The notes below the pieces were generated by a model. That model was given only the letters and a program-made list of their open reading frames with translations. It made no database searches and was not told where the DNA came from. This document shows positions 6,646 through 25,574 of a DNA stretch of 25,574 bases, piece after piece. The stretch is from an uncultured Ignavibacteriaceae bacterium. GTDB lineage: Bacteria > Bacteroidota > Ignavibacteria > Ignavibacteriales > Ignavibacteriaceae. Both the position numbers and the translations under genes were made by a program. The DNA is taken from contig CAZTDB010000002.1 in assembly GCA_964612385.1 (NCBI GenBank), positions 1 through 25,574 of the forward strand. The letters run 5' to 3'. Every line of letters starts with the position of its first letter. Position 1 is the stretch's first letter.

Positions 6646-6677
6646 GACACAGGTCTTTATCATCCTGCAGCGGAAAA

Positions 6678-8437: not shown

Positions 8438-8445
8438 ATATTATA

Positions 8446-8600: not shown

Positions 8601-8617
8601 TATAGCAATACGGCTAG

Positions 8618-9007: not shown

Positions 9008-9014
9008 TTTTAAA

Positions 9015-9256: not shown

Positions 9257-9303
9257 GACTAGTGAAAGAAGTTGCTGGAAGAATATTAGGAAGAAAAAAT
9301 TGT

Positions 9304-9648
9304 TTATATATCCTTAATCAGATAATCACTCAATCTTTTTAATAATTTCTTATGACGAAATTCCGAAATTCTGCCAATCTTTCCAGCAACCAAATTAATT
9401 GGAGCAACCGCCAGAAAGCTTAATCGAATAATTGAATCTTTAATTATTCCACTATCTTTAAAATCATTATCTTTCTCTGAAATCAGTTCATCGAAGTTTT
9501 TAATTAGTTGATGGATTTGGGTGCTTATACCACAAACCAGAAAATCATTATAGGGTGAAGGAAGCTGCCGAAGAAGTAATACTGGTCTTAATTTTGATTT
9601 TCCATCTGCCTGAGGAAGGGCAGCAAGTACTACATCCCCCTCTTTCAT
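9304..9648 (-). CDS. PemK/MazF family endoribonuclease toxin
   Basis: GDVVLAALPQADGKSKLRPVLLL...VCGIST...GIIKDSIIR matches PemK/MazF; 4-nt overlap with the upstream small gene. Confidence 0.88.
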   Translation of the reverse strand: MKEGDVVLAALPQADGKSKLRPVLLLRQLPSPYNDFLVCGISTQIHQLIKNFDELISEKDNDFKDSGIIKDSIIRLSFLAVAPINLVAGKIGRISEFRHKKLLKRLSDYLIKDI

Positions 9649-9908
9649 TTTTTATAATCCGGGTTGGGTTCTTTAATCATTGAAACAGAGTATTCTGGTT
9701 CATCTTCAGAATATGCTTTGTTTAACTGAGATAAAGATGAATCAGCCCACTCCTTTCTTTCGTCTGAATCTGATTCAGATTTTCGGAACGATCCTTCGGA
9801 AAGAACAGTAACAAGTAATTTATCTTTTGGATGAAGCTCAAATGGTGCATCAAGTATTATTGATTTGCCATCGAAATGTGCAGGCAGTGTAATAAGCGGT
9901 TTTTTCAT
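9645..9908 (-). CDS. Putative antitoxin of the PemK-type toxin (start moved to ATG 9908, MKKPLITL...)
   Basis: Small gene with acidic C-terminus (AYSEDEPEYS) overlapping the toxin start. The ORF-track extension to 9977 starts at TTG inside repeat H sequence. Confidence 0.7.
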   Translation of the reverse strand: MKKPLITLPAHFDGKSIILDAPFELHPKDKLLVTVLSEGSFRKSESDSDERKEWADSSLSQLNKAYSEDEPEYSVSMIKEPNPDYKK

Positions 9909-10101
9909 TTTAATCAGAGTTTTTTTGTTTAAAGATAGTAAATAAATGTTTAACTGAAAACAAAACCTTAGTAGCAAGTAAACAACCGAATAATCAAAAC
10001 CAAGGCAAACGGTATTGTTTATTTTTCTTGTATTTCATTTATGTAGGAACATCAATTATGATGTTCATTATAAAAAAAATTTTTATGCGGAGTGGACCTG
10101 A

Positions 10102-10527
10102 TTAATTTTCCGGGTACTTTGCCTGAAGCCAGGTTATAGTTTCCTTCATTAACATTTTCAATTTTCCCTGGTCTATGTCCGAAAGTTTTTTGATGTAAAT
10201 ACAAGCCTTGCCCATCTTGAAATTTCCGAGACCATCCAGCAGATGTTTGTGCTTGTCGAGTCCGGTAAACACATAGAGTGAAATCGCTGCCTTACGCGGA
10301 GAGAAGCCGATCATTGGCGCATCACCCTCATGACCACTGTCGTATTTATAATGATATCTTCCAAAACCGATAATACTCGGACCCCACATTCTGGGTTTGT
10401 GACCTGAGATTGATTGCATCAGTTTTATTATGTCATAACTGTCATTTCGCTTCTGCTTTGTGTCTGCAAATTCGTTAATAAATTGCAGAACATCTTTTTC
10501 CGTTACAGTTGTTTTGTTTTTTGCCAT
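10102..10527 (-). CDS. DUF1801 (YdhG-like) domain protein
   Basis: PRMWGPSIIGFGRYHYKYDSGHEGD..GFSPRKAAISLY..LGNFKMGKACIYIKKLSDID is the DUF1801 family pattern. Confidence 0.88.
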   Translation of the reverse strand: MAKNKTTVTEKDVLQFINEFADTKQKRNDSYDIIKLMQSISGHKPRMWGPSIIGFGRYHYKYDSGHEGDAPMIGFSPRKAAISLYVFTGLDKHKHLLDGLGNFKMGKACIYIKKLSDIDQGKLKMLMKETITWLQAKYPEN

Positions 10528-10700
10528 AGATTAATTCCTTTATTGACTCACTTTAAATTAATAAAATTTTTTGTATCCGCATGGAGTGTAAATTTTGTTG
10601 TTGTGGATTAGGTTGTACTTACTGCACATTTTCCCAGCAATAATATTTTTATCCTGTAAAATATTGGCTTAATAATAGTAATTAGTTTTGATCAAAGAAC

Positions 10701-10855
10701 CCTGCCTACCGGTTTACTTACCGAATTTATCCAACGCAGGTAGAGGTATTGCTGGCAGTGTTGATGGAAGTTTAAAGCTTGGAGTATTGAGGGAGTGAAG
10801 TTCTTGACAGACAAGCGAAATGAAAAATATTTTTGTGTGGATTGAATTTTGTCAA
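10701..10855. repeat. Repeat unit P-M, copy 3 (partial, begins in a CCTGCCTACCGG palindrome remnant)
   Basis: TTTAAAGCTTGGAGTATTGAGGGAGTGAAGTTCTTGACAGACAAGCGAAATGAAAAATATTTTTGTGTGGATTGAATTTT aligns without gaps to the other copies. Confidence 0.8.
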
Positions 10856-10986
10856 AATAATTAAATACCGTGATTGGCTTTCCATTAAATCACATATTTT
10901 TAATTTCCTATAATACAATAACTTATCTATCCCTTCCTCTTTTTCGTCGGTTTGTTTTTAATAAGAAAATAGAATAAATTAACATA

Positions 10987-11042
10987 ATAAACTAAAAACC
11001 ATACTTCATTATAAACTATAAATTAAGCAACACAATAAACTA
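10987..11042 (+). promoter_or_regulatory. Three ATAAACTA direct repeats at 24-bp spacing upstream of the Fic gene (possible operator)
   Basis: ATAAACTA at 10987, 11011 and 11035; ATG at 11050. Confidence 0.45.
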
Positions 11043-11049
11043 AAATATA

Positions 11050-12576
11050 ATGGCAGCACCACACCAAAAATTAGCTCAGTCCCTTGAAGTGTTAAAGCAA
11101 TTCCAGGATAAGAATGGAGTAGCAATAATAAAATCTGATGCACTTTCAAGAACCCATAGAGAACGACTGTTGAAAAATGGTTTCATCAAAGAAGTCATGA
11201 AAGGGTGGTACATTTCAAACAATCCGCAGGAAAGAAAGGGTGAAAGTACAGCCTGGTATTCGGCTTTTTGGAAATTTTGTTCTGTTTACCTGAATGATCG
11301 TTTCGATAAGGACTGGTGCGTTTCGCCCGACCAATCAATATCATTGCATTGCGAAAACTGGACGATACCAAAGCAGTTGTTGATTCGTTCCTCCAAAGCA
11401 AGTAATAATGTTACCAACCTTTTATTTGATACATCACTTGTAGATGCAGTATTAACTATGCCTGCAGAAACAGATATTATTGAAAAGAATGGCATACGTA
11501 TTTTCTCTTTAACCTCTGCCTTGTTGGCCTGTACGCCGAATTTCTTTTCACAAAATCCAATAGATGCCCGGACAGCACTAACCGGTGTAAAAGATGCTTC
11601 AGAAATACTGGTACCGCTTCTTGATGGAGGTAATTCCGTTATTGCAGGGAGGCTGGCAGGTGCATTCAGAAATATCGGAAGAGACCGCATTGCTGATGAA
11701 ATTATTAAAACTATGAAAGCAGCCGGTTATGATATACGTGAAAATGATCCGTTTGAAAAAAAGCTTCAATATACTTTTACAGACCGCTCCACTTCTCCGT
11801 ACGTAAACAGAATAAAATTGATGTGGCAGCAGATGCGTGAACCTATACTAAAATATTTTCCCAAACCACCTGGTATTCCCACAGATAAAACCTCTTATTT
11901 CAAACTTGTTGATGATAATTATAAAACTGATGCATACCATTCATTATCTATCGAAGGTTACAGGGTCACATCAGAACTGATAGAACGTGTAATGGGCGGT
12001 AACTGGAACCCGGACAGAAATGAAAAAGATAATGAGCAGAAAAATGCTCTTGCTGCCCGCGGCTATTTTCTTGCTTTTGAAGCTGTAAAAAAAAGTATAG
12101 CAAAAATATTTGAAGATGAAAATCCCGGGAAAGTAGCAGACGATGATCACAGCGATTGGTACAGAGAAATGTTTAGCCCATCTGTAACAGCAGGCTTATT
12201 ACGTACCTCTGATCTTGCCGGCTACAGGAATTCACAGGTTTACGTTTCTAACTCAAATCATATTCCTATGAACTGTGATGGTGTCCGGGATGCAATGCCG
12301 GTTTTATTTGATATGCTAAAGGACGAAAAAGAGCCGGCTGTCCGGGCAGTGCTTGGACATTTTATTTTCGTTTACATTCATCCCTATATGGATGGTAACG
12401 GAAGAATAGGCAGATTTCTGATGAATGTAATGCTGGCATCAGGAGGTTTCCCCTGGACCATTATAACTTTAGAAAGACGAAATGATTATATGAATGCTTT
12501 AGAAAAGGCGAGTGTTGAACAAAACATTAGTGATTTTGCTAAATTTATTGCGAGCCTCGTCAGCGAAAAAAAATAA
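11050..12576 (+). CDS. Fic family protein (508 aa) with long N-terminal extension
   Basis: Canonical Fic motif HPYMDGNGRIGR near the C-terminus; AYHSLSIEGY upstream. Confidence 0.92.
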   Translation: MAAPHQKLAQSLEVLKQFQDKNGVAIIKSDALSRTHRERLLKNGFIKEVMKGWYISNNPQERKGESTAWYSAFWKFCSVYLNDRFDKDWCVSPDQSISLHCENWTIPKQLLIRSSKASNNVTNLLFDTSLVDAVLTMPAETDIIEKNGIRIFSLTSALLACTPNFFSQNPIDARTALTGVKDASEILVPLLDGGNSVIAGRLAGAFRNIGRDRIADEIIKTMKAAGYDIRENDPFEKKLQYTFTDRSTSPYVNRIKLMWQQMREPILKYFPKPPGIPTDKTSYFKLVDDNYKTDAYHSLSIEGYRVTSELIERVMGGNWNPDRNEKDNEQKNALAARGYFLAFEAVKKSIAKIFEDENPGKVADDDHSDWYREMFSPSVTAGLLRTSDLAGYRNSQVYVSNSNHIPMNCDGVRDAMPVLFDMLKDEKEPAVRAVLGHFIFVYIHPYMDGNGRIGRFLMNVMLASGGFPWTIITLERRNDYMNALEKASVEQNISDFAKFIASLVSEKK

Positions 12577-12642
12577 GATACATTTTTATTGGTAACGGCT
12601 CAGGAAAGAGTTGGGTTTGTTATGGAGATGAGCCTTTAAATT

Positions 12643-12790
12643 CTTTACCCTTTGTGCAGCTTTGGGATTGCCGAAACGATCCTTTGGAGTAGTCTTTTTA
12701 ATTATAGGTTGATAGCAGTTTAAAGCTTAGAGTACTGAGCGAGAGAAGTTCCTGACTGCCAAGCGAAATAAAAAATATTTTTATGTGGAT
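12643..12790. repeat. Repeat unit P-M, copy 4
   Basis: CTTTACCC..GGGATTG..GTAGTCTTTTTAATTATAG..TTTAAAGCTTAGAGTACTGAG..GAAGTTCCTGACTGCCAAGCGAAATAAAAAATATTTTTATGTGG. Confidence 0.85.
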
Positions 12791-12827
12791 ATTACCTGCA
12801 GCCTACTTTTTAGATTTGTTTTCGTGT

Positions 12828-13154
12828 TTATATCTTTTGAAGTAATGATAAGAGTTGCGGCAGGTTATTATTAACGGTATTCCATACAAGCTCAATGTTA
12901 ACTTCAAAGTATCCATGGATTAATCTGTTCCTCATTCCAATAATATCTTTCCACGGTACTTCAGGATATTTTAGTTTTATTTCTTCGGATATTTTTGAAG
13001 CGGCTTCTCCAATTATTTCAATTTCCTTAATTACAGAAAGAATGAGCATCCTGTTTTGAGAAAAATCTTTTTCAGAAATTTCATCAGTAAATGATAATGC
13101 TTCCTCTGCTGCATCAATCATATGCTGAATCCTGATTCTGTCTTCAGGCTTCAT
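12828..13154 (-). CDS. hepT: HepT-like HEPN ribonuclease toxin (DUF86)
   Basis: RX4HXY motif RNRLIHGY; EIIGEAAS..PEVPWKDIIGMR. Confidence 0.9.
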   Translation of the reverse strand: MKPEDRIRIQHMIDAAEEALSFTDEISEKDFSQNRMLILSVIKEIEIIGEAASKISEEIKLKYPEVPWKDIIGMRNRLIHGYFEVNIELVWNTVNNNLPQLLSLLQKI

Positions 13155-13440
13155 ATTTAACTTTTGCTTCTTTTACAATAGTATCTCTGAAATATCTGCT
13201 TAGTTCTTCGGGTGTGCGAAGATCAACTTTTACACCGATTATTTCAGAAAGTTCACGTTCCAGTCTTGCCACATCAAGTAAACCGTAGCCGGTATTTTTC
13301 TCAAACTCTACCAGCAAATCAATATCACTTCCTACACTATAAGAATTTTTTAAATAAGACCCGAACAAAGAAAGTTTTCTAATCTTATTTGCTTTGCAAA
13401 AATCTTTAAGTTCTTTTGACTTTTTGGTTAATATATCCAT
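13144..13440 (-). CDS. mntA: MntA-like minimal nucleotidyltransferase antitoxin
   Basis: GSX10DXD motif in LFGSYLKNSYSVGSDIDLLVEF; overlaps the hepT start. Confidence 0.9.
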   Translation of the reverse strand: MDILTKKSKELKDFCKANKIRKLSLFGSYLKNSYSVGSDIDLLVEFEKNTGYGLLDVARLERELSEIIGVKVDLRTPEELSRYFRDTIVKEAKVKYEA

Positions 13441-13559
13441 AACGTTTGATTTTTTTTTACAATTTAAATTTATTCATTTGCGGGCTGCTATGAAAATGGA
13501 ATTTGTATCTTAAAAAACATAAAAATACTTTTTTACACGGAATGAAAGTCGAAGTATTA

Positions 13560-13674
13560 GTCTGGAAGTGGCAGGCTCTGAATGTAATACACGGGAAATG
13601 TTCCTTATGGACCCTTAAGGAAACAGGTTAAGGTTTAGTAATACTGTAAATAAAAGTTAATGCTAAAATGAAGG
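13560..13674. repeat. Repeat R, copy 1 (empty form)
   Basis: GTCTGGAAGTGG..CTGAATGTAATACAC.GGAAATGT..CTTATGGACCC..GGAAACAGGTTAAGGTTTAGTAATACTGTAAATAAAAGTTAAT..AAATGAAGG; homologous to 14478-14685. Confidence 0.8.
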
Positions 13675-13766
13675 AGCGAGAATATGTTAGGAAGTTCTTG
13701 TCCGCATTTGGAGGAGTTCCTGAAAGCCTTGGGAATATAATAACCTGGGGTGAAGTTTTATGCTTG

Positions 13767-14015
13767 TTATTTATAAATATCTTTTCTATGTCCGATTCGA
13801 AGTATAATTACTTTGTCTTTATCAATGTCAAAGATAACCCTGTAATCCCCTATTCTGAATCTATATGAACCAATGAGTGGATTAGATAATTTTCTGCTAT
13901 TACCAACAGGATCATTAATTAAAGTTTTTTACTTTTTTTTAATTGTTACCTTAACATCTTCATTTAATTTATCAATATCCTTTATAGCTCTTTTTACAAG
14001 AATGATTTTGTACAT
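13767..14015 (-). pseudogene. RelE/ParE family toxin gene with in-frame TAA at codon 29
   Basis: Manual translation: MYKIILVKRAIKDIDKLNEDVKVTIKKK*KTLINDPVGNSRKLSNPLIGSYRFRIGDYRVIFDIDKDKVIILRIGHRKDIYK*. TAATG overlap with the antitoxin; internal stop at 13929-13931. Confidence 0.88.
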
Positions 14016-14206
14016 TAAAGTACTTCATCAATGTCTTTGAAATCCCCTGCTTTGTAATCTTCCCGTGCTTCACGAATGGAATTAATATAATCCTTGCTTG
14101 ATAGTGCTTTTAAATCTTCGAGATAATCTTCAATTGCTTCCTGAACAGATTTTGAAATTAATTCTTTTAACTCGTCAATAGTTAGTTCCGATACTCTTGT
14201 GTTCAT
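14015..14206 (-). CDS. Putative antitoxin of the RelE-type toxin
   Basis: 63-aa acidic protein (SIREAREDYKAGDFKDIDEVL) translationally coupled to the RelE-like frame; GGAG RBS. Confidence 0.78.
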   Translation of the reverse strand: MNTRVSELTIDELKELISKSVQEAIEDYLEDLKALSSKDYINSIREAREDYKAGDFKDIDEVL

Positions 14207-14298
14207 TTATTGCTCCTGTTTTAGAATTGGATTTTCATTGCTATAATTTTAATAAATATTTCGGCGAATAAAAAGAGTTGATTAAATACATTTGAAAA

Positions 14299-14429
14299 TA
14301 ACCTTAGTAACACAGCACACAACCCCGGGATAAAAACCTTATTACCTTATTAAAAAGTGAATATTTTTTTAGAATGAATAAGGTAATAAGGTCAGTGGTC
14401 TTGGTTACAGGATTTCGTTACTAAGGTTA
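14299..14429. repeat. Long inverted-repeat element H, intact copy
   Basis: 13-bp outer IR (14299-14311/14417-14429), 16-bp inner IR (14336-14351/14377-14392), 24-nt unpaired spacers on both sides, 25-nt central loop. Confidence 0.88.
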
Positions 14430-14477
14430 ATACTTATGGAAAACCATATCGTTACTTGGTGTGCGAGTCTAAACCCT

Positions 14478-14685
14478 GTCAGGAAGTGCCTGATTCTGAA
14501 TGGAATACACCTGTAATGTCATCCTGCCTGCCCCTTGGGGATGTTGCCTGCCCTCTGTAATGAAATGAAGGAGGGTTGAAGGAAATGTCATCCTGAGCTT
14601 GTCGAAGGATGTCTCTTATGGACCCTGACGGAAACAGATTAAGGTTTAGTAATCCTGTTAATAAAAGTTAATACTTAAATGAAGG
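14478..14685. repeat. Repeat R, copy 2 (filled with two palindromic insertions)
   Basis: Colinear with 13560-13674 apart from an ~70-bp composite at 14511-14580 and the 24-bp TGTCATCCTGAGCTTGTCGAAGGA at 14586-14609. Confidence 0.8.
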
Positions 14686-14774
14686 GAAAGCATTTGGCAG
14701 GGAGTAGTCTTGACAGTCTTGAAAAGTTATATAATTAAATAGTGTAATTTGGTTGGTTGTAGATAGGAAATATT

Positions 14775-15179
14775 TTATTCTTCAAATCTATTACGGTTCA
14801 TATCAGAATATGTACTATAATCGGTTGTAAGTTCTTCACCCTTTTTTATATCTCTAATCGCAAAAAATAATAAATTTTTATCCGCAGCAACGTTTGGCTC
14901 CTGTGAATAATTAAGATACCAGGCAACAGTTAATTGATTAAAATTTTTAGGGCATCCGTACGAACTACCTTTTTTAACACAAAAGTCTTTATACAATTTT
15001 TTGATTTCTTTTGGTAAATGATTTAACCTGCTTTTTTTAATCCAAACTAAATCTTCATCATCACCATAAAATATATATGTTCCTTTTTTAATATTTTTAA
15101 TTGCAAATACACCAACTCCATGAATTTTGGAAGGAGCTAGACGTGTAAATACTTTATCATGGGGAAGTTTATTTTTCAT
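14775..15179 (-). CDS. SET domain-containing protein (putative protein lysine methyltransferase)
   Basis: SKIHGVGVFAIKNIKKG, YLNYSQEPNV (NHS..PN position) and AIRDIKKGEELTTDY. Confidence 0.88.
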   Translation of the reverse strand: MKNKLPHDKVFTRLAPSKIHGVGVFAIKNIKKGTYIFYGDDEDLVWIKKSRLNHLPKEIKKLYKDFCVKKGSSYGCPKNFNQLTVAWYLNYSQEPNVAADKNLLFFAIRDIKKGEELTTDYSTYSDMNRNRFEE

Positions 15180-15188
15180 ATAACTTTA

Positions 15189-15761
15189 TTACCATTTAAA
15201 GTATGGAAACTTTTTATCGTATTTATATTTATTTGCATTGCGAATTACCCAGTAATAAATAAATAAACTAATTATTATAGGTACAATTATAAAAAATACA
15301 AAATTATTATGATTTACAAGAAATTCAATTGAGCTGAGGATTGTTAAAATATATTCGATAGTCGCAAATACAGAAAGCCAGAATGCTATAATATAAGGTA
15401 TCCAGGATTTCCAACAATCAGCATCTTTCAACCATTCTTCTAATCTGCATTCTGTAAAATCCTTTTGTATAACTTCCAGAGAAATTTGACCATAATACCA
15501 CGCAAGCTTTGACCTCTGTTTATAAAATAAAGCTGAAGCGATAAATAATGCAACAGATGCCAATATTAAAAACCAAATTCCCTTATCAGTTAAATTACTT
15601 GCTACATTGAATGCAACAGAATTTTTATCAATGGAAATTATTCTTTCAATTACTATTGAAGGTACAGCAACACAAAATGCAGATAATATTCCCATGATTG
15701 TCATTTCTTTATCCAAATAGTCTAAATAATATTTAACATCTGAATTCATAATAGTCTCCAT
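15189..15761 (-). CDS. Hypothetical membrane protein (about 4 hydrophobic segments)
   Basis: 190 aa with four long hydrophobic stretches; 9-nt gap to the SET gene. Confidence 0.75.
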   Translation of the reverse strand: METIMNSDVKYYLDYLDKEMTIMGILSAFCVAVPSIVIERIISIDKNSVAFNVASNLTDKGIWFLILASVALFIASALFYKQRSKLAWYYGQISLEVIQKDFTECRLEEWLKDADCWKSWIPYIIAFWLSVFATIEYILTILSSIEFLVNHNNFVFFIIVPIIISLFIYYWVIRNANKYKYDKKFPYFKW

Positions 15762-15809
15762 TAGAAAATCAAATATTGACGGATATTGCTTCTAAAATGC
15801 ACCTGCGTT

Positions 15810-16556
15810 TTATAACTTTTTTGATTTTTGTTTATTTAATATTTTTTTCATCTCTTTAATAGTATATGGTTCACCTGACTTTTTATGAATCATTGCATGG
15901 CAATTTGGACAAACTGGAATTAAATCTTTTATTGGATCAACGTGGTATGTCTTTTTTATTTTACCAATAGGTGTCAGGTGGTGTATATGAATAAAGCCCT
16001 TACCCAATTCACCATAAGTTTTTTCGAAATCAAAAGAACAAACAGAACAAATTGCTTTATAATAAGCAATGCATTTCTCCCGATCTTCTGTATTACGTTC
16101 ATATAAGTTTACAGTTACTTTATGTTGTGCACCTTCTGGAAATGAATCTGAACTTTCGATCTCTTCAGGCGACAAATATACTGTCTGCTTGTTAACAGCA
16201 TACCATTCATCATTAATTTTTTCAAGTGAGCGATCATACAATTCTTTTATAATATAGTCTATAACTGCTGGCGAATCTTTTGGTAATCCTTTTTTTTCTA
16301 TCATTGGAAAAATTTTAAGAGAATATCCTTTATTGGTCACCAAATTTATATTTTCTAGTGCTTCATCATAAGCTTTGTTTTTTTTGTGATTATGGTAAGC
16401 CCAAGATTCTTTTAGAATCATAATATATTCAGGATCTTCATTCCAATCCCAATAACCAAAGATTACACATTTTTTTTTATGATTAACAAATGACCAACTC
16501 CATAACCAATTTTTACATGTAGCTCCATGGGATTCAATAAATTTTTTTCTGCTCAT
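15810..16556 (-). CDS. HNH endonuclease (McrA-like C-terminal domain)
   Basis: CSVCSFDFEKTYGELGKGFIHIHHLTP...DLIPVCPNCHAMIH zinc-HNH module with an unrelated N-terminal domain. Confidence 0.9.
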   Translation of the reverse strand: MSRKKFIESHGATCKNWLWSWSFVNHKKKCVIFGYWDWNEDPEYIMILKESWAYHNHKKNKAYDEALENINLVTNKGYSLKIFPMIEKKGLPKDSPAVIDYIIKELYDRSLEKINDEWYAVNKQTVYLSPEEIESSDSFPEGAQHKVTVNLYERNTEDREKCIAYYKAICSVCSFDFEKTYGELGKGFIHIHHLTPIGKIKKTYHVDPIKDLIPVCPNCHAMIHKKSGEPYTIKEMKKILNKQKSKKL

Positions 16557-16653
16557 AAAAAATTACCTTTTGGAAATTAATGTTTGTAAAAAAAATATTT
16601 TTATAGGGATTACATATGATTTTGAATTAATTGAACTCTCTCTAAATCTCTCC

Positions 16654-17271
16654 TTATCTACCTGCTTCATTAGCAACCTCTTCAATCCAATTAGAAAAAT
16701 TCGAATTGCCATCATCCATTATCCAACAATATGTATCAAATTTTTCTGAGAATCGAAAAAATTTTCCAAAGTCATTAAATATTAACCAGTCAGCAAAATA
16801 GAGTGTGTTCGATTTTTTATTATTGATCGTGGGTAGTTCTTTATAAATAGTCCATTTCCGGTTTAATAATTCGTAGAAATGAATTCTTTCTCCATCCTCT
16901 GAAATTTCGAACCCAAGCTTATCAAGTGGATTTATGCCCCTTGGAGTTATACCTATTTTACCTTTAATTCTATTGATGTGTATTCCTAAAATTCCATTAC
17001 CACGTTCAAAACTTTTAATTATCTCATAATTAATGCACTTTCTATTAGCCGTACTTTCACCGATTAAAACAGTTGTAATTGAAGTTTTCTTCAGTCCACT
17101 TTCAATAAGTTGCTTTATAGCATGATCTTCTTGTGTTTTAAGTTTTTCCCAGATTGAACCATCAACAAAAGTCTCATTACTATGTCTCATTAACCAACTA
17201 TTACGAACTACATTTACTTTGAAGTTCTTAACATCTTCATATGCAAAACTAAAGAAGACAAATCTCGCCAT
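16654..17271 (-). CDS. ThsB-like TIR domain protein (DUF1863 type)
   Basis: VFFSFAYED..VNVVRNSW..IKQLIESGLKKTSITTVLIG..YEIIKSFERGNGILGIHI; catalytic Glu position (YEI) retained. Confidence 0.88.
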   Translation of the reverse strand: MARFVFFSFAYEDVKNFKVNVVRNSWLMRHSNETFVDGSIWEKLKTQEDHAIKQLIESGLKKTSITTVLIGESTANRKCINYEIIKSFERGNGILGIHINRIKGKIGITPRGINPLDKLGFEISEDGERIHFYELLNRKWTIYKELPTINNKKSNTLYFADWLIFNDFGKFFRFSEKFDTYCWIMDDGNSNFSNWIEEVANEAGR

Positions 17272-17284
17272 AATTATTATCCAA

Positions 17285-17944
17285 TCAATCTATAGTTTTT
17301 GAAATATTGTAGTCTTCACTGTTCTCTTTAATATGAAACGCTATATCAATGTATTTATCAATATCCTCATTAAAGTCCCTCCACCTTACACAAAATATAT
17401 AAGAAAAATAACCATTGTAAATAGTACTTCCTTCACACTGCCTTGTATCAGGATTTTTGATATTAAACATATTGTCTCTCAATATTTTGAAGAGACGGTC
17501 TGTGTGGTAAGTAGTGCTATTGCAATTTGGATTATAAGTAAGAAAGTATTCGTAGCTACCATTTTCATCTGGTAACACAACAGCTAGAATTGCGTTGGTT
17601 TTACTAGTTCTTCCCGCCCTAGACATTTCTTTCAGAGAATAAGATATTTCCCATGGTATCCATTGATCAGTTTCAGCGAGAGTATAATCTTTCATTCCTT
17701 TTGATATTAAAACAATAGTAACAGTACTGTCAAAAATTTTATTTTTTAATTTTGTCTCTATCGTTTCGTCCTTAAAATCTTCCAAGCTCTCATTATCATT
17801 TTCACCCTTATAAATGTAATCTTCATCATCTAGCAAATCTTGAAGTTTGTCAACATAATCTCTAGCGGTAGAAAAGTAATTGCCATCTAAACCTTGGACT
17901 TGAGAATCTGAGTATTTATAAGTAACAAAAATTTTCTTGCCCAT
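17285..17944 (-). CDS. ThsB-like TIR domain protein (DUF1863 type)
   Basis: KIFVTYKY..KIFDSTVTIVLIS..WIPWEISYSL..NAILAVVLP. Confidence 0.88.
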   Translation of the reverse strand: MGKKIFVTYKYSDSQVQGLDGNYFSTARDYVDKLQDLLDDEDYIYKGENDNESLEDFKDETIETKLKNKIFDSTVTIVLISKGMKDYTLAETDQWIPWEISYSLKEMSRAGRTSKTNAILAVVLPDENGSYEYFLTYNPNCNSTTYHTDRLFKILRDNMFNIKNPDTRQCEGSTIYNGYFSYIFCVRWRDFNEDIDKYIDIAFHIKENSEDYNISKTID

Positions 17945-17967
17945 TTTTGATTTTCTCCCTTTAATAG

Positions 17968-18558
17968 TTAAATGTAATCTCTCAATAAATCTTTTAACAA
18001 TGACATATAGGCATAGTCATTTTTAAGCCTGACATCAAGTTTAGTTTTCATATTATCATATATCAGTTTGGCAGCTGCGCCAGTACTTGCAAATGGTAGC
18101 AGTAAAGCATTTGGATGTGATTCCTGAAATAGTTTAAATTCTTCAATAACCCCCTCCATGCCCCCAATAAAAATTCCAACTTTAAAGTCATTATCTTTAA
18201 TCATAACATTTCTCAAATCAACCATACTTTTTTCACGATTTATGTTTGCTGGAATAAGTTTTATATCCTCAAAAAAGAAATTATCCTTTGGAAATGACTT
18301 TTCAAAGAACTTTGATTGATAAAGTGTAACATGTTCCTTCAAATCAATTTTCATAGCACTTAAAACAAATCTGATTAAAGGTGTAATTGCTGGATGTCCG
18401 CCCCAAATCAATTTTGCATTTGGGATAACTACAGTCGCTAATGCCCTTACCGAATCTCTTATTGCAATAATATCAGCAGTATCATAAAATTTTCGATCCC
18501 TATCTGGTAATGGAATGCTTGCAGCAAGGAATACTTTATTTAAATTTTTTTTAACCAA
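17968..18558 (-). CDS. Stand-alone SLOG domain protein (LD cluster3 type)
   Basis: VFLAASIP..IAIRDSVRAL..LIWGGHPAITP..TLYQS..GIFIGGMEGVIEEF..STGAAA, the SLOG nucleotide-binding pattern. Confidence 0.85.
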   Translation of the reverse strand: MVKKNLNKVFLAASIPLPDRDRKFYDTADIIAIRDSVRALATVVIPNAKLIWGGHPAITPLIRFVLSAMKIDLKEHVTLYQSKFFEKSFPKDNFFFEDIKLIPANINREKSMVDLRNVMIKDNDFKVGIFIGGMEGVIEEFKLFQESHPNALLLPFASTGAAAKLIYDNMKTKLDVRLKNDYAYMSLLKDLLRDYI

Positions 18559-19712
18559 TGCTCTATCTCAATAATTTTTATAGTCCGTACAGGAAGATAT
18601 TGCTCTAACCAAGCTAAATGTTTAAGCCATTTTTCTCTGATATTCCTGTGGTCAAATAATAAATATGTTTCAGAAATATTTTTTGATTTTATACGATTTA
18701 TTATCTCCTCCGATTGGTTATACGTGAATGCTTGTGGAACTCCTATTGTGGGAATAATTAAAACTCTCTTTTTTTGCTTGTTCTGCAGAGTAATAAATTT
18801 TTCCGGATGTAAGCGTGGATGAATTCTCATTTTATTAGAAGCTTTAATAAATTCAGTAGTAATGTTATTACGTCTAGCAGCAAGGCTTCTAGCTCTCCAC
18901 GATTCCACACTGCTTACAATTCTTTTTATAGTCTTTTCCCTAAGACTACTTTTGGAACTATTGTAATTTCGATTTGCAAAATCAGTTGCTTTCAATTTAA
19001 AAGGAAGACTTAATTCTGCTATGTCTTCTGGCTTATGGTTTGGCCAGATAATGTGCAATATACCTATAGACATCGAATTAGCTCTGGCAAGTTCTTTGGG
19101 CGTCCACTCACTATTTAGAAATCCAGGTGTATTTAACAGTACTACTGTATCAGTATCAGCAAGTCTATGCCATAATTCATCTTGAAAGGGATCTCCATAC
19201 CTAACGCTATGTGTATCTAAAAATACATCAAATCCAGCTTTTTCAAGTTGTTCGTAAAGTTGAATCGCAACTGCACTAGATTCAACCCTCCTATAGCTTA
19301 TAAATATTCTCCTTGATAATCTTAATAAACTCAAACCCTCTAGTATACAACTTACAAGTGGTTCTATTTCTAAATTTGATGATAAACCAAAACTATTAAT
19401 GCCTTCTAACTCTTTTGGAACATAAGAGCTAAAACTCTTTAGATTATCTACTACTGGCAGGATTAAAACAGCATCGGTAATTAATTTCCTAATGATATCT
19501 AAATTAGTGAACCTATTTTTAGCATTACCAAAATAAAGACAATATGATGGTACATTGGCTCTATATTCTTTATAAAAATTTTTCTTATTTAGAATTATGA
19601 CATTGCTCTTATCAAATCCAAGCTCACGAAGCCGTTTATAAAACGTCTTCATTATTTTATTGATACGAAGATTCTTATATCCTAGCAATATTAATTGATA
19701 TTTATATCTCAT
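18540..19712 (-). CDS. TIR (TIR_2-like) protein with extra N- and C-terminal domains
   Basis: RIFISYRR..AIQLYEQLEKAGFDVFLD..SEWTPKELARA; about 130-aa N-terminal extension. Confidence 0.87.
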   Translation of the reverse strand: MRYKYQLILLGYKNLRINKIMKTFYKRLRELGFDKSNVIILNKKNFYKEYRANVPSYCLYFGNAKNRFTNLDIIRKLITDAVLILPVVDNLKSFSSYVPKELEGINSFGLSSNLEIEPLVSCILEGLSLLRLSRRIFISYRRVESSAVAIQLYEQLEKAGFDVFLDTHSVRYGDPFQDELWHRLADTDTVVLLNTPGFLNSEWTPKELARANSMSIGILHIIWPNHKPEDIAELSLPFKLKATDFANRNYNSSKSSLREKTIKRIVSSVESWRARSLAARRNNITTEFIKASNKMRIHPRLHPEKFITLQNKQKKRVLIIPTIGVPQAFTYNQSEEIINRIKSKNISETYLLFDHRNIREKWLKHLAWLEQYLPVRTIKIIEIEHWLKKI

Positions 19713-19722
19713 TTATCTTTGA

Positions 19723-20322
19723 TCAATAATTCTTATTTAACCAATCTTTTAATGGGGTAATATATCTTATACCTTCTTTATTTGTTGGTTCACAAACATA
19801 ATAACCTTGTGGTATCAATTTATTCGAAACCCTATATTGACTTTTTCCGTCCTCATAATCAATCTGAGGATAAATACGAAGATATTCGTTTCCTTTATAG
19901 TCAGAGTTGGGCGTTCCTTTTTCTTTCACAGGTAATATAGCTATTCTACTGATATAAGTAGTTGTATCTCCTAAGCCTAACTCCCAATTACACCAAAATG
20001 ATTCAATGGCTTTATTAGTGGCTAATAAAATAAATTTATCACAAAACCGAATAACTTCTTTTATCCTTTTTGCTGTTTCTCCAGATGTCTGTTCTGGCAT
20101 TTTATTATCCATACTATCAATATAAATTTTTACTCCAAACCTTTGGAGTAACCCAATTACACCTCTGAGATCATTTAAGTCTTCATGTTTATGCGATATG
20201 AACACCGTTGGTTCGTAGGGTCTTTGAGAGTCGGTGCTAAATTTTTGGATTTCTCGTAGAGATTCATTAATAAATGAGTCACTTGCTCTATAATTGTTAA
20301 AATATTCTCTTTCAAAAATCAT
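19723..20322 (-). CDS. TIR domain protein
   Basis: VFISHKHED..GVKIYIDSMD..IRFCDKFILLAT..SFWCNWELG. Confidence 0.88.
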   Translation of the reverse strand: MIFEREYFNNYRASDSFINESLREIQKFSTDSQRPYEPTVFISHKHEDLNDLRGVIGLLQRFGVKIYIDSMDNKMPEQTSGETAKRIKEVIRFCDKFILLATNKAIESFWCNWELGLGDTTTYISRIAILPVKEKGTPNSDYKGNEYLRIYPQIDYEDGKSQYRVSNKLIPQGYYVCEPTNKEGIRYITPLKDWLNKNY

Positions 20323-20344
20323 AATTCTTCCTTAATAATAATCC

Positions 20345-23300
20345 TCACCCCACCACCCTCTTCACCAACCTATCAATTTCCTTCATCTCCGCTGCAAGGT
20401 ATTTTTTTATATCAAGACGGAGTTTGCCAAGACGTGTGGCAGTTAGTTCTTTTTGAGGTGGATTGTCTTCCAAAAATTTTACTGCTTTTTTATGTGCTCT
20501 CTCGCTTAACTCTGCTAGCTTTAAATGCACTTCATTTGTTTCATCAAAGCGGGGGAAGTAAATGTCGAGTATCTTTTTGTGAACGTGTCTTGCACCAAAG
20601 TGTCCTCTTGCCTGAAAATCTTTTATTAACTTATTTGGAATTGAAGAGTTCAATATTGATGTTAAATAAAAAGCAACTTTTATATCATTTGTATAGAAAA
20701 TATATGTTACACTTTCTGCTAAAAAATTTAAGTCTATACTGTTCCTATTAACAACAGTTGCATTCGCATCTTTTGCTGACGAATTATACAAAACCATATA
20801 AAGTGCATCCAGATTTTGTTCGGTTAATCCTCTCTGAAAATCTATTCTGCCATTTGCAGTCATATTTTTTGATTTTTCAGTTTTATTTATCTCCCAAATG
20901 TTTTCAGCATTCTTAAACCATTTAGATGAATGCAAATATCCTTCCTGCATTAGTTCATTTGCTGCCAGTAGCTTGATTTTTTTATTACCCTCATTATTTT
21001 TTTCAATTAAAATCGGCAGGACAACCAAATCAGGTTTATACAAAGCAAAAGGTAAAATACTTTTTGCCAGTGCCGTCCTGAAAATAAATTTACTTTCAAT
21101 TCTTCCTGTAAACTCCAATCCTTTCCAGGGTTTCTTTGCATCGTTCTTTATTGCCTCGGAAGTTTTAATATTTATTATTCTATCCTCAAAATCCTGCGGA
21201 ACATCTTGCGTTAATTCAATAAAATAAAAACACCGGGGAACGATTGTAGCACCCTGCTTAAAATGTTTCTTATAAGGATTTTCTGTTTCGTTGGATTTCG
21301 TTTTTTTACTTGATATTGCAGAAGCTTTTCCCTGTTTTACATAATACCATTTAACGGCTTCTTCAGTAATATTTTCTTTTGCAGTTAAAAGATTGCAGTT
21401 ATGCTCAGTCAGCTTCCCGCTAAATATATTTCCGTGTAAACCAGAGAAAGGAACTTTTTTCTTTTCATACTTTTCAGCAAAGAAAACACAGCTTGGAATT
21501 CTGAACAGAGGAGAAACATCTTTCAAATCCCATATCTGTTTAAGCTTAAACCCGACAGCTTTTCCGCTTCTTGTGTTATCGTGGTGGTCGGCACTAAAGA
21601 AGCTTCTCGGCAGAACAAAAGCAATCTGTCCATGCTTGCTTAAAAAGTAGCTGCTGCAGTAAACCATAAATATTGCTGCAATTTCAAGATGAGGAAAGTT
21701 TGCAACCTTAACCGGCTTCACCTCATACTTATCAGCAAGTGCATTAAGTATATTCTGGTAATCTTCATTCCTTATCGAGCTGTAAGTAAACCAGGGCGGG
21801 TTGCCTATAACATAATCAAACTTACCAGCAAGGAAATAAGGTTTGTAGAGGTTCTGCACAATAAACTTCCAGATGCTGTCTCTTCCTTTTTCTTTAACAA
21901 CTTTTAATCCTGTATAAATTTTATAAAAACTTTCAATTACCTGCTTATTTGCCCCCGATTTATTTCCGTTCTTTGCAAAATGCTTCCTGAAAATATTTTC
22001 AAAGACTTCTTCCGATTCTTTTTTCTTTCCCATTGTTTGTTCTGCAAGGTCATCGCAGATTCCGAGCGCTTCATCGAACAGCTTTACATCTTCAAGTATC
22101 TGCGTGGTTAAGTGATACTTCTCTTTATCAATGTTCAGAAGAAATTCATTGCCGAAAAGATTCTGCACACCTTCAGGTGCAAGAAGCGTGTTTGCAAGTA
22201 ATATGTTAAGGTAAACAGGTTTCTTTGCGTTAATAATTTCCTTACCGAGTGCAAGAAGCAAAGTTGTTTTTGCTATCTGCACACTAAGCGGGTGAATATC
22301 TATTCCGTAAACCTGCTCATTTAATTCTTCAACGGTTACATCGGGATTAAGCTCTTTAATCCTGTGAATAGCCGCTCTTAAGAAAGACCCGCTTCCGCAG
22401 GCAGGATCGAGTATCTTGTTTGTTTTGCTAAACTGAAACTCTTTAACAATTCTTTCGCAAAGCCAGTCGGGGGTGTAATACTCGCCGAGAGAATGTCTTG
22501 TATCAATATCAATCAGCTCCTGGTAAACACCTTTAAGAATATCTTCGTCAACATTATCAAATTCAAAGTTGGAAATTTCCTGTGCAATAAGCCGGAAAAC
22601 TTTTTTCAGGTTGTTGAAACTCCGCTCAGTATTAATCCAATGGAAGAAATCGTTATCAACAAAATTGCGGATGTTATACCTGTGAAATATTGTGCCGTCG
22701 AGAATTCCCTTAAGTTCGGAATCGTCGATAAAATCATCGTTGGATACTACACAGTAAGCGAGCATTTTGGAGATTACGCTAAGGTAAGTGTGAATAAGAA
22801 AGATGTTATCACGCGCATCAAATCCGCCGTAAGCAATGCTTAAGAATTTACTCCACTGCTCGTAAGAAACCTGCACTTCGCCGTATTTCTTAGCTTCTCT
22901 GAACCAATTATTCAATTCACGGAATGACTCAATGAAAATATTGCTTTGATATCCAAAGGCTTCTTCAATTCTTTTAAGCGTTGCACGTTGCTTTTCTTCC
23001 TTGAAAAGAAAGCGGTCAATCCAGTAATAAAATTCCTCTGTATTTCTTTCATTTAGTACAAACGAAGCGCTTTTAACTTCGTTAAGAATCAGTTCGTGTT
23101 CCTGTAATTCTTCTATTCTATCAAGCGAGGAAACATCGGGGGCAAAAACTTTCCATGTAATAAAATCTGATGCAATCAGAGTAAAATTATAACTCTCGCC
23201 GGACCGCAATTGTCCTAACAGATATCCGGCAAGCTGTTCTTTGGCGTGCTCTAATGTAAGGTTAAGGTTATTTTCAAATTCAATGATGATATGATTATAA

Positions 23301-23524
23301 AGTGTATCCGCACTACCTTTATGAATTTTATCTTTTCGGGGAATATTTAGAACGGTCGTTTCAGCCCCAAGTGTAATTTTATTAACAAGACGAAGAATTT
23401 CTTCATCTTGAATATACAGCCGGTTTAATAAATCTTTGAATGCTTCTTTCTTAGTAAACTCTTTATTAGCTGCTTTAACTTTGGATAAATACTCTTTTAT
23501 AAGAAAAGTTTTGTTGCTTTTCAT
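20345..23524 (-). CDS. Single-chain restriction-modification enzyme (type IIG-like) with N6-adenine methyltransferase
   Basis: Motif I DPACGSGSFL, motif IV GNPPW, GEYYTP; N-terminal ADTLY..IIIEFE..EQLAGY nuclease-like segment; long C-terminal specificity region. Confidence 0.88.
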   Translation of the reverse strand: MKSNKTFLIKEYLSKVKAANKEFTKKEAFKDLLNRLYIQDEEILRLVNKITLGAETTVLNIPRKDKIHKGSADTLYNHIIIEFENNLNLTLEHAKEQLAGYLLGQLRSGESYNFTLIASDFITWKVFAPDVSSLDRIEELQEHELILNEVKSASFVLNERNTEEFYYWIDRFLFKEEKQRATLKRIEEAFGYQSNIFIESFRELNNWFREAKKYGEVQVSYEQWSKFLSIAYGGFDARDNIFLIHTYLSVISKMLAYCVVSNDDFIDDSELKGILDGTIFHRYNIRNFVDNDFFHWINTERSFNNLKKVFRLIAQEISNFEFDNVDEDILKGVYQELIDIDTRHSLGEYYTPDWLCERIVKEFQFSKTNKILDPACGSGSFLRAAIHRIKELNPDVTVEELNEQVYGIDIHPLSVQIAKTTLLLALGKEIINAKKPVYLNILLANTLLAPEGVQNLFGNEFLLNIDKEKYHLTTQILEDVKLFDEALGICDDLAEQTMGKKKESEEVFENIFRKHFAKNGNKSGANKQVIESFYKIYTGLKVVKEKGRDSIWKFIVQNLYKPYFLAGKFDYVIGNPPWFTYSSIRNEDYQNILNALADKYEVKPVKVANFPHLEIAAIFMVYCSSYFLSKHGQIAFVLPRSFFSADHHDNTRSGKAVGFKLKQIWDLKDVSPLFRIPSCVFFAEKYEKKKVPFSGLHGNIFSGKLTEHNCNLLTAKENITEEAVKWYYVKQGKASAISSKKTKSNETENPYKKHFKQGATIVPRCFYFIELTQDVPQDFEDRIINIKTSEAIKNDAKKPWKGLEFTGRIESKFIFRTALAKSILPFALYKPDLVVLPILIEKNNEGNKKIKLLAANELMQEGYLHSSKWFKNAENIWEINKTEKSKNMTANGRIDFQRGLTEQNLDALYMVLYNSSAKDANATVVNRNSIDLNFLAESVTYIFYTNDIKVAFYLTSILNSSIPNKLIKDFQARGHFGARHVHKKILDIYFPRFDETNEVHLKLAELSERAHKKAVKFLEDNPPQKELTATRLGKLRLDIKKYLAAEMKEIDRLVKRVVG

Positions 23525-23744
23525 TTACACAATTCTAAGTTATTTCTCGTTTACGGTGCAACTTAGCAAGAATTAATTTAATTGAAAATAGAGGGATTGC
23601 AAAAGTAAGGAATACGGCTGAAGTTAAAGTATCGCTAATCTCATGGAGATTCAGGATATGTTCAATACTACCATATCTAATTTAAAATAAATTGAACTCA
23701 CTCTTAATGAGGCTGTCCAATCCAAAGGATCGTTCCGAAAAGTT

Positions 23745-23912
23745 CTTTGTGACGTTTTGTGCCTTCGAGTCTTTTGCCAAAGGCATTCCCTCAGAAGTGG
23801 CTAAAGTTTGAAAACACTTGATAATCAAGATTTCTATCCACAGAATCGTATCGATTTGCCACGTTCGAAGAATCCTATGGAAAGGCACAAATACACAAAG
23901 AATCTCACTAAG
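23745..23912. repeat. Imperfect inverted-repeat element G built from CACnAAG subrepeats, both arms carrying inserts
   Basis: Left CTTTGTGACGTTTTGTGCCTTCGAGTCTTT[22 bp]GTGGCTAAA; right TTTGCCACG[18 bp]AAGGCACAAATACACAAAGAATCTCACTAAG. Confidence 0.7.
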
Positions 23913-24008
23913 ATAATCTATTTTTTGGTCACCCTCACTTTATAGTAATTGTTAACCTACCAAAAAAATGTTCTGTCAACATATTAAGCGTGAAGACATT
24001 GCCTCAAA

Positions 24009-24119
24009 CAAGTCCTTCGCTTGGTCCTATGGATCCTTTAGATAAGAGAAGGATTGCTAGTCACGGCGTAGACTCCAGGCTATTATCAGAAGTTTGTGTC
24101 GTAGCCGGAGGATGAGTTC
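24009..24119. repeat. Right half of repeat D, near-identical to 8897-9007
   Basis: 111 bp, 8 substitutions, no gaps, same nested inserts. Confidence 0.9.
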
Positions 24120-24126
24120 CTCCCGC

Positions 24127-24377
24127 CTCACCACCTTCTTAACCAACCCATCTATCTCCTTTCCAAAGGATCCTTCGGACATCTCTTCTGCAAGGTGTTT
24201 CTTTATATCGAGACGGAGTTTGCCTAAACGCCTGCCTGTTTGGCAGGTAAATATGGCGCTTAGTTCTTTCCGAAGGATGGCGTCCATTTGCTGTGGATTG
24301 TCTTCTCCCAAAGGGATGCAAAAGCATAAATATTTTGCTGTTTTTTGTGTGCTGCTTAGCTTAGTTCTGTAAGCTTT
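24127..24377 (-). pseudogene. Decayed 3' fragment of a paralog of the RM enzyme gene with four short insertions
   Basis: Aligns to about 20345-20522 (KLAELSERAHKKAVKFLEDNPPQKELTATRLGKLRLDIKKYLAAEMKEIDRLVKRVV); one premature TAA, a 1-nt deletion, and inserts of 18, 21, 18 and 21 nt. Confidence 0.88.
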
Positions 24378-24380
24378 TTA

Positions 24381-24629
24381 TTACGCAGTAACATGACGGA
24401 ATACTTTTACAGGCACCTCCATAATCTCATCCCATTGCTGTTTGTGCTTAATATCTTTCTCAATGGATTTAGCATTTTCTGCTTTTAAATATTTTTCTCC
24501 GCATTGCTGACAGACTCCAACAGGCACACTCCTAAAAACATATAATTTCCCTTTATAGCAGTAGTCTAATTCAATTAACTTTTCTTTAACTTCGCCGCCG
24601 CAAAACGAGCAATCTGCATATTGTCTCAT
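24381..24629 (-). CDS. YgiT-type zinc finger protein (likely start MRQYADC at 24629)
   Basis: CSFCGG..VFRSVPVGVCQQCGEKYL..EIMEVPVKVF; the usual upstream DUF4258 partner is absent. Confidence 0.85.
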   Translation of the reverse strand: MRQYADCSFCGGEVKEKLIELDYCYKGKLYVFRSVPVGVCQQCGEKYLKAENAKSIEKDIKHKQQWDEIMEVPVKVFRHVTA

Positions 24630-24689
24630 GTTTATTATCCTTCTTTGTTTCTTGTTCATTCATCTATTCAGAAAAATAATTGATACATA

Positions 24690-25100
24690 CTAATCCTTTA
24701 ATAAAGATTCACCCCATCTTTTGAACCTCTCAAAATTCTTCCAAAGATTATCAATGTCTTTCTTGTTGTAAACATCCCCGCTATATGAAACGGAGGTTTT
24801 ATATGCGATAATTTTTTCAAGTTGATTATATGCTTTCTTATTCTCATCGTTTGCAGCGAGAATTTCCTATAATGGTATTACTGTTTGATAATGATCTTCT
24901 CCCTGACTTTTTTCTCCTCTGAATTTAATACTTATTGCAACGGCATAAGCAATAGCAGAATGAACAATCAATACTCCCGCTGCATTCCAATATTTATATT
25001 CATGGGCGACCTCTGTGCCACCGAAAAAGCTTTCAGCCACTTTTTTATAATCCATCCATTTGGCATTGTCAACTTTAGTTCTTATTGTTTTTCTGCTCAT
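24690..25100 (-). pseudogene. HEPN-like protein gene with in-frame TAG at codon 78
   Basis: The frame continues past the TAG at 24867-24869 (EILAANDENKKAYNQLEKIIAYKTSVSYSGDVY...SLLKD*) to a stop at 24690; LIVHSAIAYA and QGEDHY resemble HEPN; overlaps an MNT gene. Confidence 0.75.
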
Positions 25101-25574
25101 TCAGAAGTTTCCTGATGGTTTTACCGGATATTACTATTCCATCACTTATAATATCGGAGATGGGAGGCTTTTTAGTTCGGGCTCTTTTTTTGAATTCTGT
25201 TTCCGAAATAAAAAATGGCGATAATGAAACACCGTATTTTTTAAAGAGAGACAAATTAACTTCAGTTAAAACATTTTCAATTTTACTTTTCATTCCGGCA
25301 CCATTAAAAACTATGCAGAGATCAAGGTCGCTTTCAATTTTTTCTTCATTTCTCGCAGTACTGCCGAATACAATTAAGCTTGATGTGTGCCCACCTAATT
25401 CTTTTTCAATATCAGAATAAATAGTTTCTGCGAATTTCTTTTCCGAATTAAGATTCGGGATAATGATTTTTTTAACTATATAATGCTCGCGGTTTAAGAA
25501 AAAGAAATGTTCTCTGCCGCCTCTTTGCCGGTTTACGATATTAAGATTCTCAAGAGACGAAAGCGCCTCTAAAC
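25075..25574 (-). pseudogene. HTH-nucleotidyltransferase (MNT) gene, 5'-truncated by the window edge, with a +1 frameshift
   Basis: VFGSTARNEEKIESDLDLCIV motif in the frame of the 25075-25293 ORF. The upstream LSSLENLNIVNRQRGGREHFFFL frame joins it only if one A is removed at 25493-25495 (giving LNREHYIVKKIIIP). Confidence 0.78.

Follow-up and report, generated by a model that had tools for sequence, protein, structure and literature searches.

The short blocks that interrupt a decayed RM gene end at positions 24127-24377 of the window, the whole stretch of 25,574 nt analysed here from an uncultured Ignavibacteriaceae bacterium, are best explained, at a probability of about 0.7, as lineage-specific mini-palindromes collected by a dead RM tail that was displaced behind small gene cassettes, with block lengths that derive mainly from a repeat unit of 18 nt.

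Anatomy of the fragment and its four inserts

The fragment aligns on the reverse strand with the last ~178 nt of the intact RM gene (20345-20522) plus four extra blocks, i1 to i4 (Table 1). The insert calls are based on a MAFFT alignment of 24100-24400 (-) with 20330-20540 (-), which agrees with the original prediction of inserts of 18, 21, 18 and 21 nt; the net length is firm at each site, and for i2 and i3 the exact boundaries can move slightly, by a few bases, with i2 shifted by four in blastn. A premature TAA and a 1-nt deletion had also been predicted and both were located, and the RM stop itself is lost, with CGG at 24124-24126 where TGA was. By tblastn, the fragment matches at 52% over RM residues 1014-1058.

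Table 1. Features of the fragment, its inserts and its surroundings in the window
Feature	Position	Strand	Description
RM 3′ remnant	24127-24377	-	Non-functional; last ~58 codons of an Eco57I/MmeI-like RM gene; probably displaced behind a cassette
i1	24162-24179	-	18 nt; fits the twin mini-hairpin family exactly (TCCGAAGGA + TCCTTTGGA); peptide SEGSFG
i2	24231-24251	-	21 nt; one hairpin (CCTGCC, 5-nt loop, GGCAGG) + TTTA; peptide FTCQTGR
i3	24269-24286	-	18 nt; twin mini-hairpin (TGGACGCCA + TCCTTCGGA); peptide MDAILR
i4	24306-24326	-	21 nt; twin mini-hairpin of 10 + 11 nt, one loop measuring 4 nt and one stem 4 bp; peptide C-F-C-I-P-L-G
Premature TAA	24356-24358	-	In place of a Glu codon
1-nt deletion (frameshift)	24340/24341	-	From the alignment
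MqsA/YgiT-like antitoxin gene	24381-24659	-	Stop abuts the fragment; Pfam MqsA_antitoxin E=2.9e-6, just under cut-off
Intact RM gene	20345-23524	-	1059 aa; fragment compared against its last 178 nt
Dispersed repeat	24008-24119	+	Adjoins the fragment on its 3′ side; copy of 8896-9007 (93%)
Further 18-nt family member	23721-23738		In the 856-nt spacer
Further 18-nt family member	23864-23881		In the 856-nt spacer
Further 18-nt family member	24025-24042		Inside the dispersed repeat

The protein of the intact gene matches the Pfam families N6_Mtase (7.7e-16), Eco57I (3.8e-15) and MmeI_Mtase (4.4e-10), and this combination of an N6 adenine methylase with Eco57I/MmeI methylase domains in a single protein of ~1000 aa identifies the parent as a putative type IIG enzyme. 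The GGAACTCATCC end of the dispersed repeat next to the fragment is also found after RM fragments of the congener G001 and of G128. Rfam gave no match at or near the fragment.

An assembly artefact is ruled out by exact unitigs from run X1 that link i1-i4 and by an independent sample from 2017 (X2, another study). Logan unitigs of X1 match 24010-24179, 24156-24316 and 24291-25574 without any difference, and the second of these spans i1 into i4, physically linking the four blocks; in X2, 76% of the sampled words of window 23600-24900 are present and one contig, among those listed, is an exact match to 24291-25574 that reaches the i4 block. No population polymorphism of the inserts was seen in the contigs of four runs from rock/subsurface populations (X1-X4). 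Contigs of X1 and X2 that join 24215 to 24287 via 32 other letters, the length expected without i2 and i3, come from a different RM-like tail of these communities, one without the two blocks, and not from an allele of the fragment.

Direction of the length changes

The final 130 residues were aligned from 112 full-length homologues with 60-86% identity across the C-terminal 300 residues, and no residue occupies the insert columns i1-i4 in any of the 112. The tail measures 58 residues in 100 of 113 alignment rows. Across 401 genomes of the order, intact RM 3′ ends matched a 201-nt query without length change, and extra length was found in fragments only. The pattern of the i2 junction gave 12 matches in 185,579 species genomes, of which two are fragments in G018 and G128 and the other ten unrelated chance matches, and the i3 and i4 junction patterns gave nothing in JGI metagenome contigs. 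As no homologue or intact RM 3′ end carries any of them, all four blocks are gains in the fragment, in line with the original observation that the intact gene has no inserts at these sites, and deletions in the RM gene are ruled out by the alignment of the 112 homologues. With an RM tail that is length-invariant in more than 100 homologues, the fragment is a polarised record in which each block is unambiguously an insertion; it thereby supplies the direction of change, which is the usual weak point in claims of mobility for tiny palindromes.

A genus-specific family of 18-nt twin mini-hairpins

All four blocks are palindromic. A pair of T-NN-nnn-N'N'-A halves, which a random 18-mer would form with a chance of ~1 in 65,000, makes up i1 and i3 exactly and i4 with an added loop base and an added stem pair, while i2 stands outside this design as a single hairpin with a 6-bp stem. 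The genome holds 9 exact copies of i1 and 177 matches at <=3 mismatches (both strands counted), as well as 13 matches to i3 at the same threshold. The CCTGCC...GGCAGG hairpin of i2 belongs to a family found at 8 loci in the genome versus 0 for the control, with lengths of 16-21 nt, mostly 19. The i2 stem is the same in the window (24231-24247) and in G018 (L014 ~6400), and the 5-nt loop reads AAACA in the former and TTGTT in the latter, nearly its reverse complement, which suggests a loop inversion between the arms.

The 18-nt element consists of two adjoining 9-nt mini-hairpins, T-NN-loop-N'N'-A, whose halves vary by paired changes (e.g., TCC/GGA, TCG/CGA, TGC/GCA), and its consensus TCCGAAGGATCCTTCGGA is found at 153 loci within 4 mismatches in the genome. 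The subfamily TCGGAACGATCCTTYGGA is present in 41 copies in this genome (G000), 114 in the congener and 0-4 in 119 other genomes of the family (reversed control, 0), and the 18-mers are thus expanded in this genus only. A definition by structure alone returned 279 18-mers where ~175 were expected, and because of this high background the family must be defined by sequence. Its density is 15-fold higher outside ORFs. The spacer at 23525-24380 (856 nt) contains five members versus 0.25 expected (P = 6e-6), two of them within 251 nt (P = 0.0025), and clustering is general, with 33 of 56 neighbour distances at <=300 nt. The family is restricted to one Ignavibacteria genus, has in-frame copies within live genes, many secretion-tag domains among them, and merits dedicated study.

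Several of the copies in genes and in other repeats deserve mention. At least 13 C-terminal sorting domains of the type IX secretion system (T9SS CTDs) have an in-frame 18-mer at one shared position (F-SVGSFG-NA); in this genome the sites are C11:8153, C13:7491, C45:2194, C46:5505, C54:3318, C69:5360, C69:6879, C102:2466, C131:4682, C178:2516, C263:1708, C323:3774 and C325:1223. The G001 orthologue lacks the 18-mer in three of these cases, and the same site in paralogous domains would therefore have been repeatedly filled or converted. At C61:4461 a ~12-nt direct repeat (TCAAAGGTCAAA) borders an exact 18-mer in a secretion-tag domain, the other sites being without duplication. At C315:2334, C105:1106 and C78:7991, longer GTAG-tagged hairpins (GTAGAGACG...) hold an 18-mer precisely in the loop, an arrangement that reads as tiny 18-mers nested in REP-like elements.

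Insert lengths and the reading frame

The alignment of 925 kb of G001 to this genome yielded 511 kb aligned at 81% identity, in which 18 nt is a sharp mode, with 19 indel events versus single events at 16, 17 and 20 nt and four at 19 nt. The twin mini-hairpin element accounts for 13-15 of these 19 indels, and the CCTGCC...GGCAGG hairpin is likewise itself an indel between the two genomes. The element indels are exact, have the extra copy in one genome or the other and lie in ORFs as well as in non-coding DNA, so that the 18-mers form a genome-wide presence/absence family. The unit likewise measures 18 nt in non-coding DNA at 8879-8896, compared with the paralogous copy near 23991. Six clean six-codon differences, including SVGSFG (secretion-tag domains), PKDRSD and SEGSFR, separate otherwise intact orthologues in three reading frames. 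No target duplication is present at 11 clean empty/filled site pairs, and the insertion sites mostly have T at the end of the 5′ side and A at the start of the 3′ side. This combination of T/A site preference and lack of duplication resembles single-strand "peel and paste" transposition, a likeness that is not diagnostic.

No stop codons occur in the six frames of the canonical 18-mers, i1, i3 or i4, and under the genetic code a unit that starts with T and ends with A cannot create one at its junctions. Frame-neutrality is thus largely intrinsic to the 18-nt unit, with no need for translation; the insert lengths are divisible by three mainly because 18 nt is the size of the dominant unit at every place of insertion, and two of the four are simply of that size. 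Such a uniform series of lengths is therefore no sign of translation where the inserted unit itself measures 18 nt. The two 21-mers, i2 and i4, are weak evidence on frame-keeping and contribute little, given the 19 nt that the i2 hairpin measures elsewhere. About 60% of hairpin indels in non-coding DNA are multiples of three, which puts the chance of four in four at ~0.15, and 21-nt hairpin inserts are rare elsewhere, at 1 of ~35 indels of >=12 nt, which counts against the preferred reading.

These results bear on two suggestions of the original prediction. One, that the elements are intrinsically frame-neutral and the stretch a hotspot, is supported by the modal 18-nt indel in coding and non-coding DNA, the lack of stops and the excess of family members in the spacer. 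The other, a comparison of coding with non-coding lengths, was covered over the 511 kb: 18 nt is found in both compartments, and the other hairpin-type indels of non-coding DNA measure 19, 19, 19, 20, 22 and 27 nt.

Origin of the fragment and its cassette context

Over the 177 shared positions the fragment is 80% identical to the resident RM tail, 83% to the RM tail of G018 and 84% to a congener fragment, values that rule out a recent duplication of the resident tail. Its differences from RM genes fall 8/9/16 by codon position, and this excess of third positions indicates that it diverged mostly as coding sequence, with only moderate decay since.

In related genomes, RM 3′ fragments follow a DUF4160 + DUF2442 gene pair (casAB; G098, G018, G001, G128). 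The order is RM gene, casAB, fragment in G098; fragment, casAB, fragment in G018; and fragment, casAB, fragment, peptidase gene, fragment in G001. In G401, the intact RM gene has behind it an MqsA-like gene, whose protein is 84.5% identical in amino acids to the product of 24381-24659 in the window, a ~40-nt remnant of the casB end and an RM fragment with empty i4 and i3 sites. The fragments G001_b, G018_f2, G098_f and G401_f share a start point (TGAAAC...) preceded by the junction GTATAAYAC-CT, and those of G128 and the window begin slightly further in. The window fragment is thus the flank of a cassette and, judged by these comparisons, appears to be a displaced RM tail of a kind that recurs behind small toxin-antitoxin-like cassettes in at least five genera. 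Given the cassette and fragment orders in the related genomes, including G401, the unit in the window is most simply read as a later state of the same structure in which casAB gave way to MqsA and the fragment was shortened by its first ~27 nt. The fragment does start right after the YgiT gene stop, as first noticed; the accompanying idea that the rest of the paralog was replaced is right only roughly, as what remains is such a displaced tail and not a copy of the resident gene.

The DUF4160/DUF2442 pairs (L013 9970-10544, L069 3306-3820, L014 6515-7086 and L068 77-648) are 83-86% identical in nucleotides between genera, lie just downstream of the RM gene wherever one is present and always have an RM 3′ fragment directly after them.

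The locus is syntenic with contig C46 of the congener, whose genome (100% complete) has three RM fragments and no full RM gene. Between the same conserved flanks, the window holds more than 19 kb at 6460-25574, with toxin-antitoxin cassettes, TIR genes and the RM gene, and the congener ~4.3 kb at L013 9600-13900, with the three fragments and no RM gene. Region 6460-25574 is thus a highly variable defence island. At 6500-14700, small toxin-antitoxin-type genes (DUF5615/DUF433, PemK, HepT/MNT, Fic, DUF1801) stand in series, separated by repeated spacers with a recurring motif of ~50 nt, and resemble a cassette array.

Occupancy of the insert sites among fragment copies

The i1 block is confined to the window fragment, its site being empty in the other fragments that extend to it, namely the three of G001 (a-c), G018_f1, G128_f and G032_f, and in all RM genes, and i3 is common to the window and G001_b. 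The i2 position is filled in three lineages with elements that differ in length and loop orientation, namely the window, G018_f2 (an inverted loop, 21 nt) and G128_f (a frame-breaking 19 nt). Three different elements occupy the i4 position in three lineages, with a 21-nt insert in G128_f that has the same second half and an ordinary 18-nt family member in G001_b. Overall, three sites are filled in differing combinations in four copies from three genera (this genome and G001 forming one genus, G018 and G128), and G001_a, G001_c, G018_f1, G098_f and G401_f are without any insert. This repeated filling of three sites points either to targeting that recurs or to an exchange of sequence among the copies. 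In the window, G001_b and G018_f2, every insert has a net length divisible by three. G001_b, an intact ORF of 86 codons, contains two 18-nt inserts and differs from RM genes at 6/4/16 sites by codon position, and these coding-like differences indicate that its two inserts came before any visible decay.

Proposed mechanism and alternative explanations

According to the preferred explanation, a small toxin-antitoxin-like cassette lodged at the RM gene end would leave a displaced RM tail behind it, the first cassette being the DUF4160/DUF2442 pair and its replacement here the MqsA-like gene. Freed from protein constraint, the tail would become part of a spacer that collects tiny palindromic repeats, with i1 and i3 as standard 18-nt units, i4 as a stretched 10+11-nt version and i2 as a member of the separate CCTGCC...GGCAGG family. 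The repeats may spread via a trans-acting enzyme on single-stranded hairpins, for which a Y1/HUH transposase is a weak candidate, or via copy exchange between fragments, and would persist in the tail as nothing selects against them. Passive accumulation alone may be insufficient, since the density of inserts relative to substitutions in the fragment is far above the genome average.

A further step, that sequence- or structure-guided machinery returns mini-hairpins to the same few positions, is tentative and on balance unlikely; it is suggested by the refilling of the i4 and i2 sites across lineages and of the same T9SS CTD position in many paralogues. If true, cassette-flanking RM tails would act as a natural trap in which targeted insertions of a mobile unit are recorded. 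At 18 nt this unit would be about the smallest described, and its T...A ends and freedom from stops would allow it to reside in genes.

It has been proposed instead that the inserts entered while the tail still formed the translated terminus of a functional RM gene, with frame-keeping lengths under selection, so that the fragment would be a retired alternative C-terminus, possibly by way of a cassette-borne tail recombined onto the RM gene. The preservation of frame by 4/4 insert lengths, the open frame and coding-like divergence of G001_b with its two inserts and the presence of the same elements in frame in live genes elsewhere all fit this proposal. In the AlphaFold model of the RM tail (mean pLDDT 77.7), i2, i3 and i4 are predicted to flank or lie in a single loop (residues 1021-1028), as expected of a protein that once tolerated insertions; i1, however, falls inside the last predicted helix (pLDDT 85-97 in this part), which speaks against translation. 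The near-invariant tail length and the frame-breaking 19-nt insert of G128 also stand against translation, as do the searches of intact genes: neither the 112 homologues, whose intact C-termini were compared as originally suggested, nor any intact RM tail of the order carries an insert, and no intact gene with one came from the species genomes (i2 junction) or the JGI contigs (i3, i4). The proposal is therefore improbable, and the claim that the inserts diversified a translated C-terminus finds no support.

Little probability is likewise given to a functional non-coding role, in which the fragment and its hairpins would be a cassette module (for example a site of recombination or a structure at an RNA 3′ end), with the hairpins kept for that role. 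The shared junction after cassette genes in G001, G018, G098 and G401, the filling of the same three sites in different genera and the persistence of 78-85% similarity across genera among nominally dead fragments would suit such a module. The RNA folding z-score of the fragment with its hairpins (-2.9) also points that way, but any set of inserted palindromes gives such a score. Moreover, the filled sites differ from copy to copy, several fragments have none, the RM fragments are truncated at differing points, and no recombinase gene was found among the window ORFs scanned. As regards integron cassettes, which have an integrase gene nearby and attC sites of R''-L''/L'-R' structure, the 27 window and locus ORFs scanned gave no integrase domain, and a junction motif is shared among the fragments.

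A very improbable reading, in which the blocks, at least i2 and i4, are local template-switching or hairpin-forming replication errors at fragile sites and not mobile copies, would accommodate the uniqueness of i2 and i4 in the genome at <=3 mismatches, the overlap of the i2 arm GGCAGG with the original RM TGGCAG, the inverted i2 loop in G018 and the end of the G401 fragment at the i2 site, but not the exact match of i1 to a dispersed 18-mer, the two-unit family design of i3 and i4 or the recurrence of the i2 hairpin at 8 loci and as an indel between congeners.

Relation to known repeats and candidate enzymes

MITEs have terminal inverted repeats and a target-site duplication and are usually longer than 50 nt, features from which the 18-mer departs in its size and in the lack of duplication at the 11 clean site pairs. 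Rickettsia palindromic elements (RPEs), of ~100-150 nt, are similar in being palindromic repeats in frame in protein genes and differ in length from the 18-21 nt seen here, where the host sequence is a dead fragment. Another likeness is to the small dispersed repeats SDR1-8, which Elhai and colleagues reportedly described in 2008 in Nostoc punctiforme and relatives (as cited in PMC3116915 and PMC5861425). The SDRs measure 21-27 nt and are reported in Nostocaceae only (PMC5861425). Like the 18-mers, they are very short and dispersed, have hairpin potential, show precise presence/absence between related genomes, nest in one another, have expanded in restricted lineages and have no identified enzyme; the unit seen here differs in its 18 nt, its build of two 9-nt mini-hairpins and its occurrence in Ignavibacteria.

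REPs are also small palindromes that are mostly extragenic, clustered and sometimes in frame inside genes, and at 20-40 nt they are longer than the 18-mers. Intragenic REPs and GTAG/CGTC-tagged REPs were described by Di Nocera et al. 2013, including different REPs at about the same recB site in two Xanthomonas species (PMC3733652), and REPINs occur with RAYT transposases (PMC3116915). The flank profile of the 153 18-mer loci contains no GTAG/CGTC tag. As precise, tiny dispersed palindromes, some of them in genes, are already in print as SDRs, intragenic REPs, RPEs and mitochondrial GC clusters (PMC3733652, PMC3116915, PMC5861425, PMC4478555), the present case is a new family member in a new setting and not a new kind of element.

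The genome has three Y1/HUH transposase genes, at 313-894 of the window, C19:8262-8603 and C146:3844-4182. Among 121 genomes of the family, the presence of RAYT did not correlate with 18-mer abundance, which rejects RAYT as the 18-mer mobiliser, and this comparison of Y1/RAYT genes with abundance ties no enzyme to the elements. A cognate RAYT flanked by 18-mers was not found; the Y1_Tnp (IS200-like) gene at 313-894 (+), encoding 193 aa, is instead flanked at 265-286 and 935-956 by GTAG-tagged hairpins, GCACAGACC-AGT-GGTCTGTGC, of which the genome has only ~6. Its orthologue in G001 is 93% identical and in a syntenic place, homologues are present in 66 of 121 family genomes, and the gene with its hairpins has the appearance of a classic RAYT/REP arrangement.
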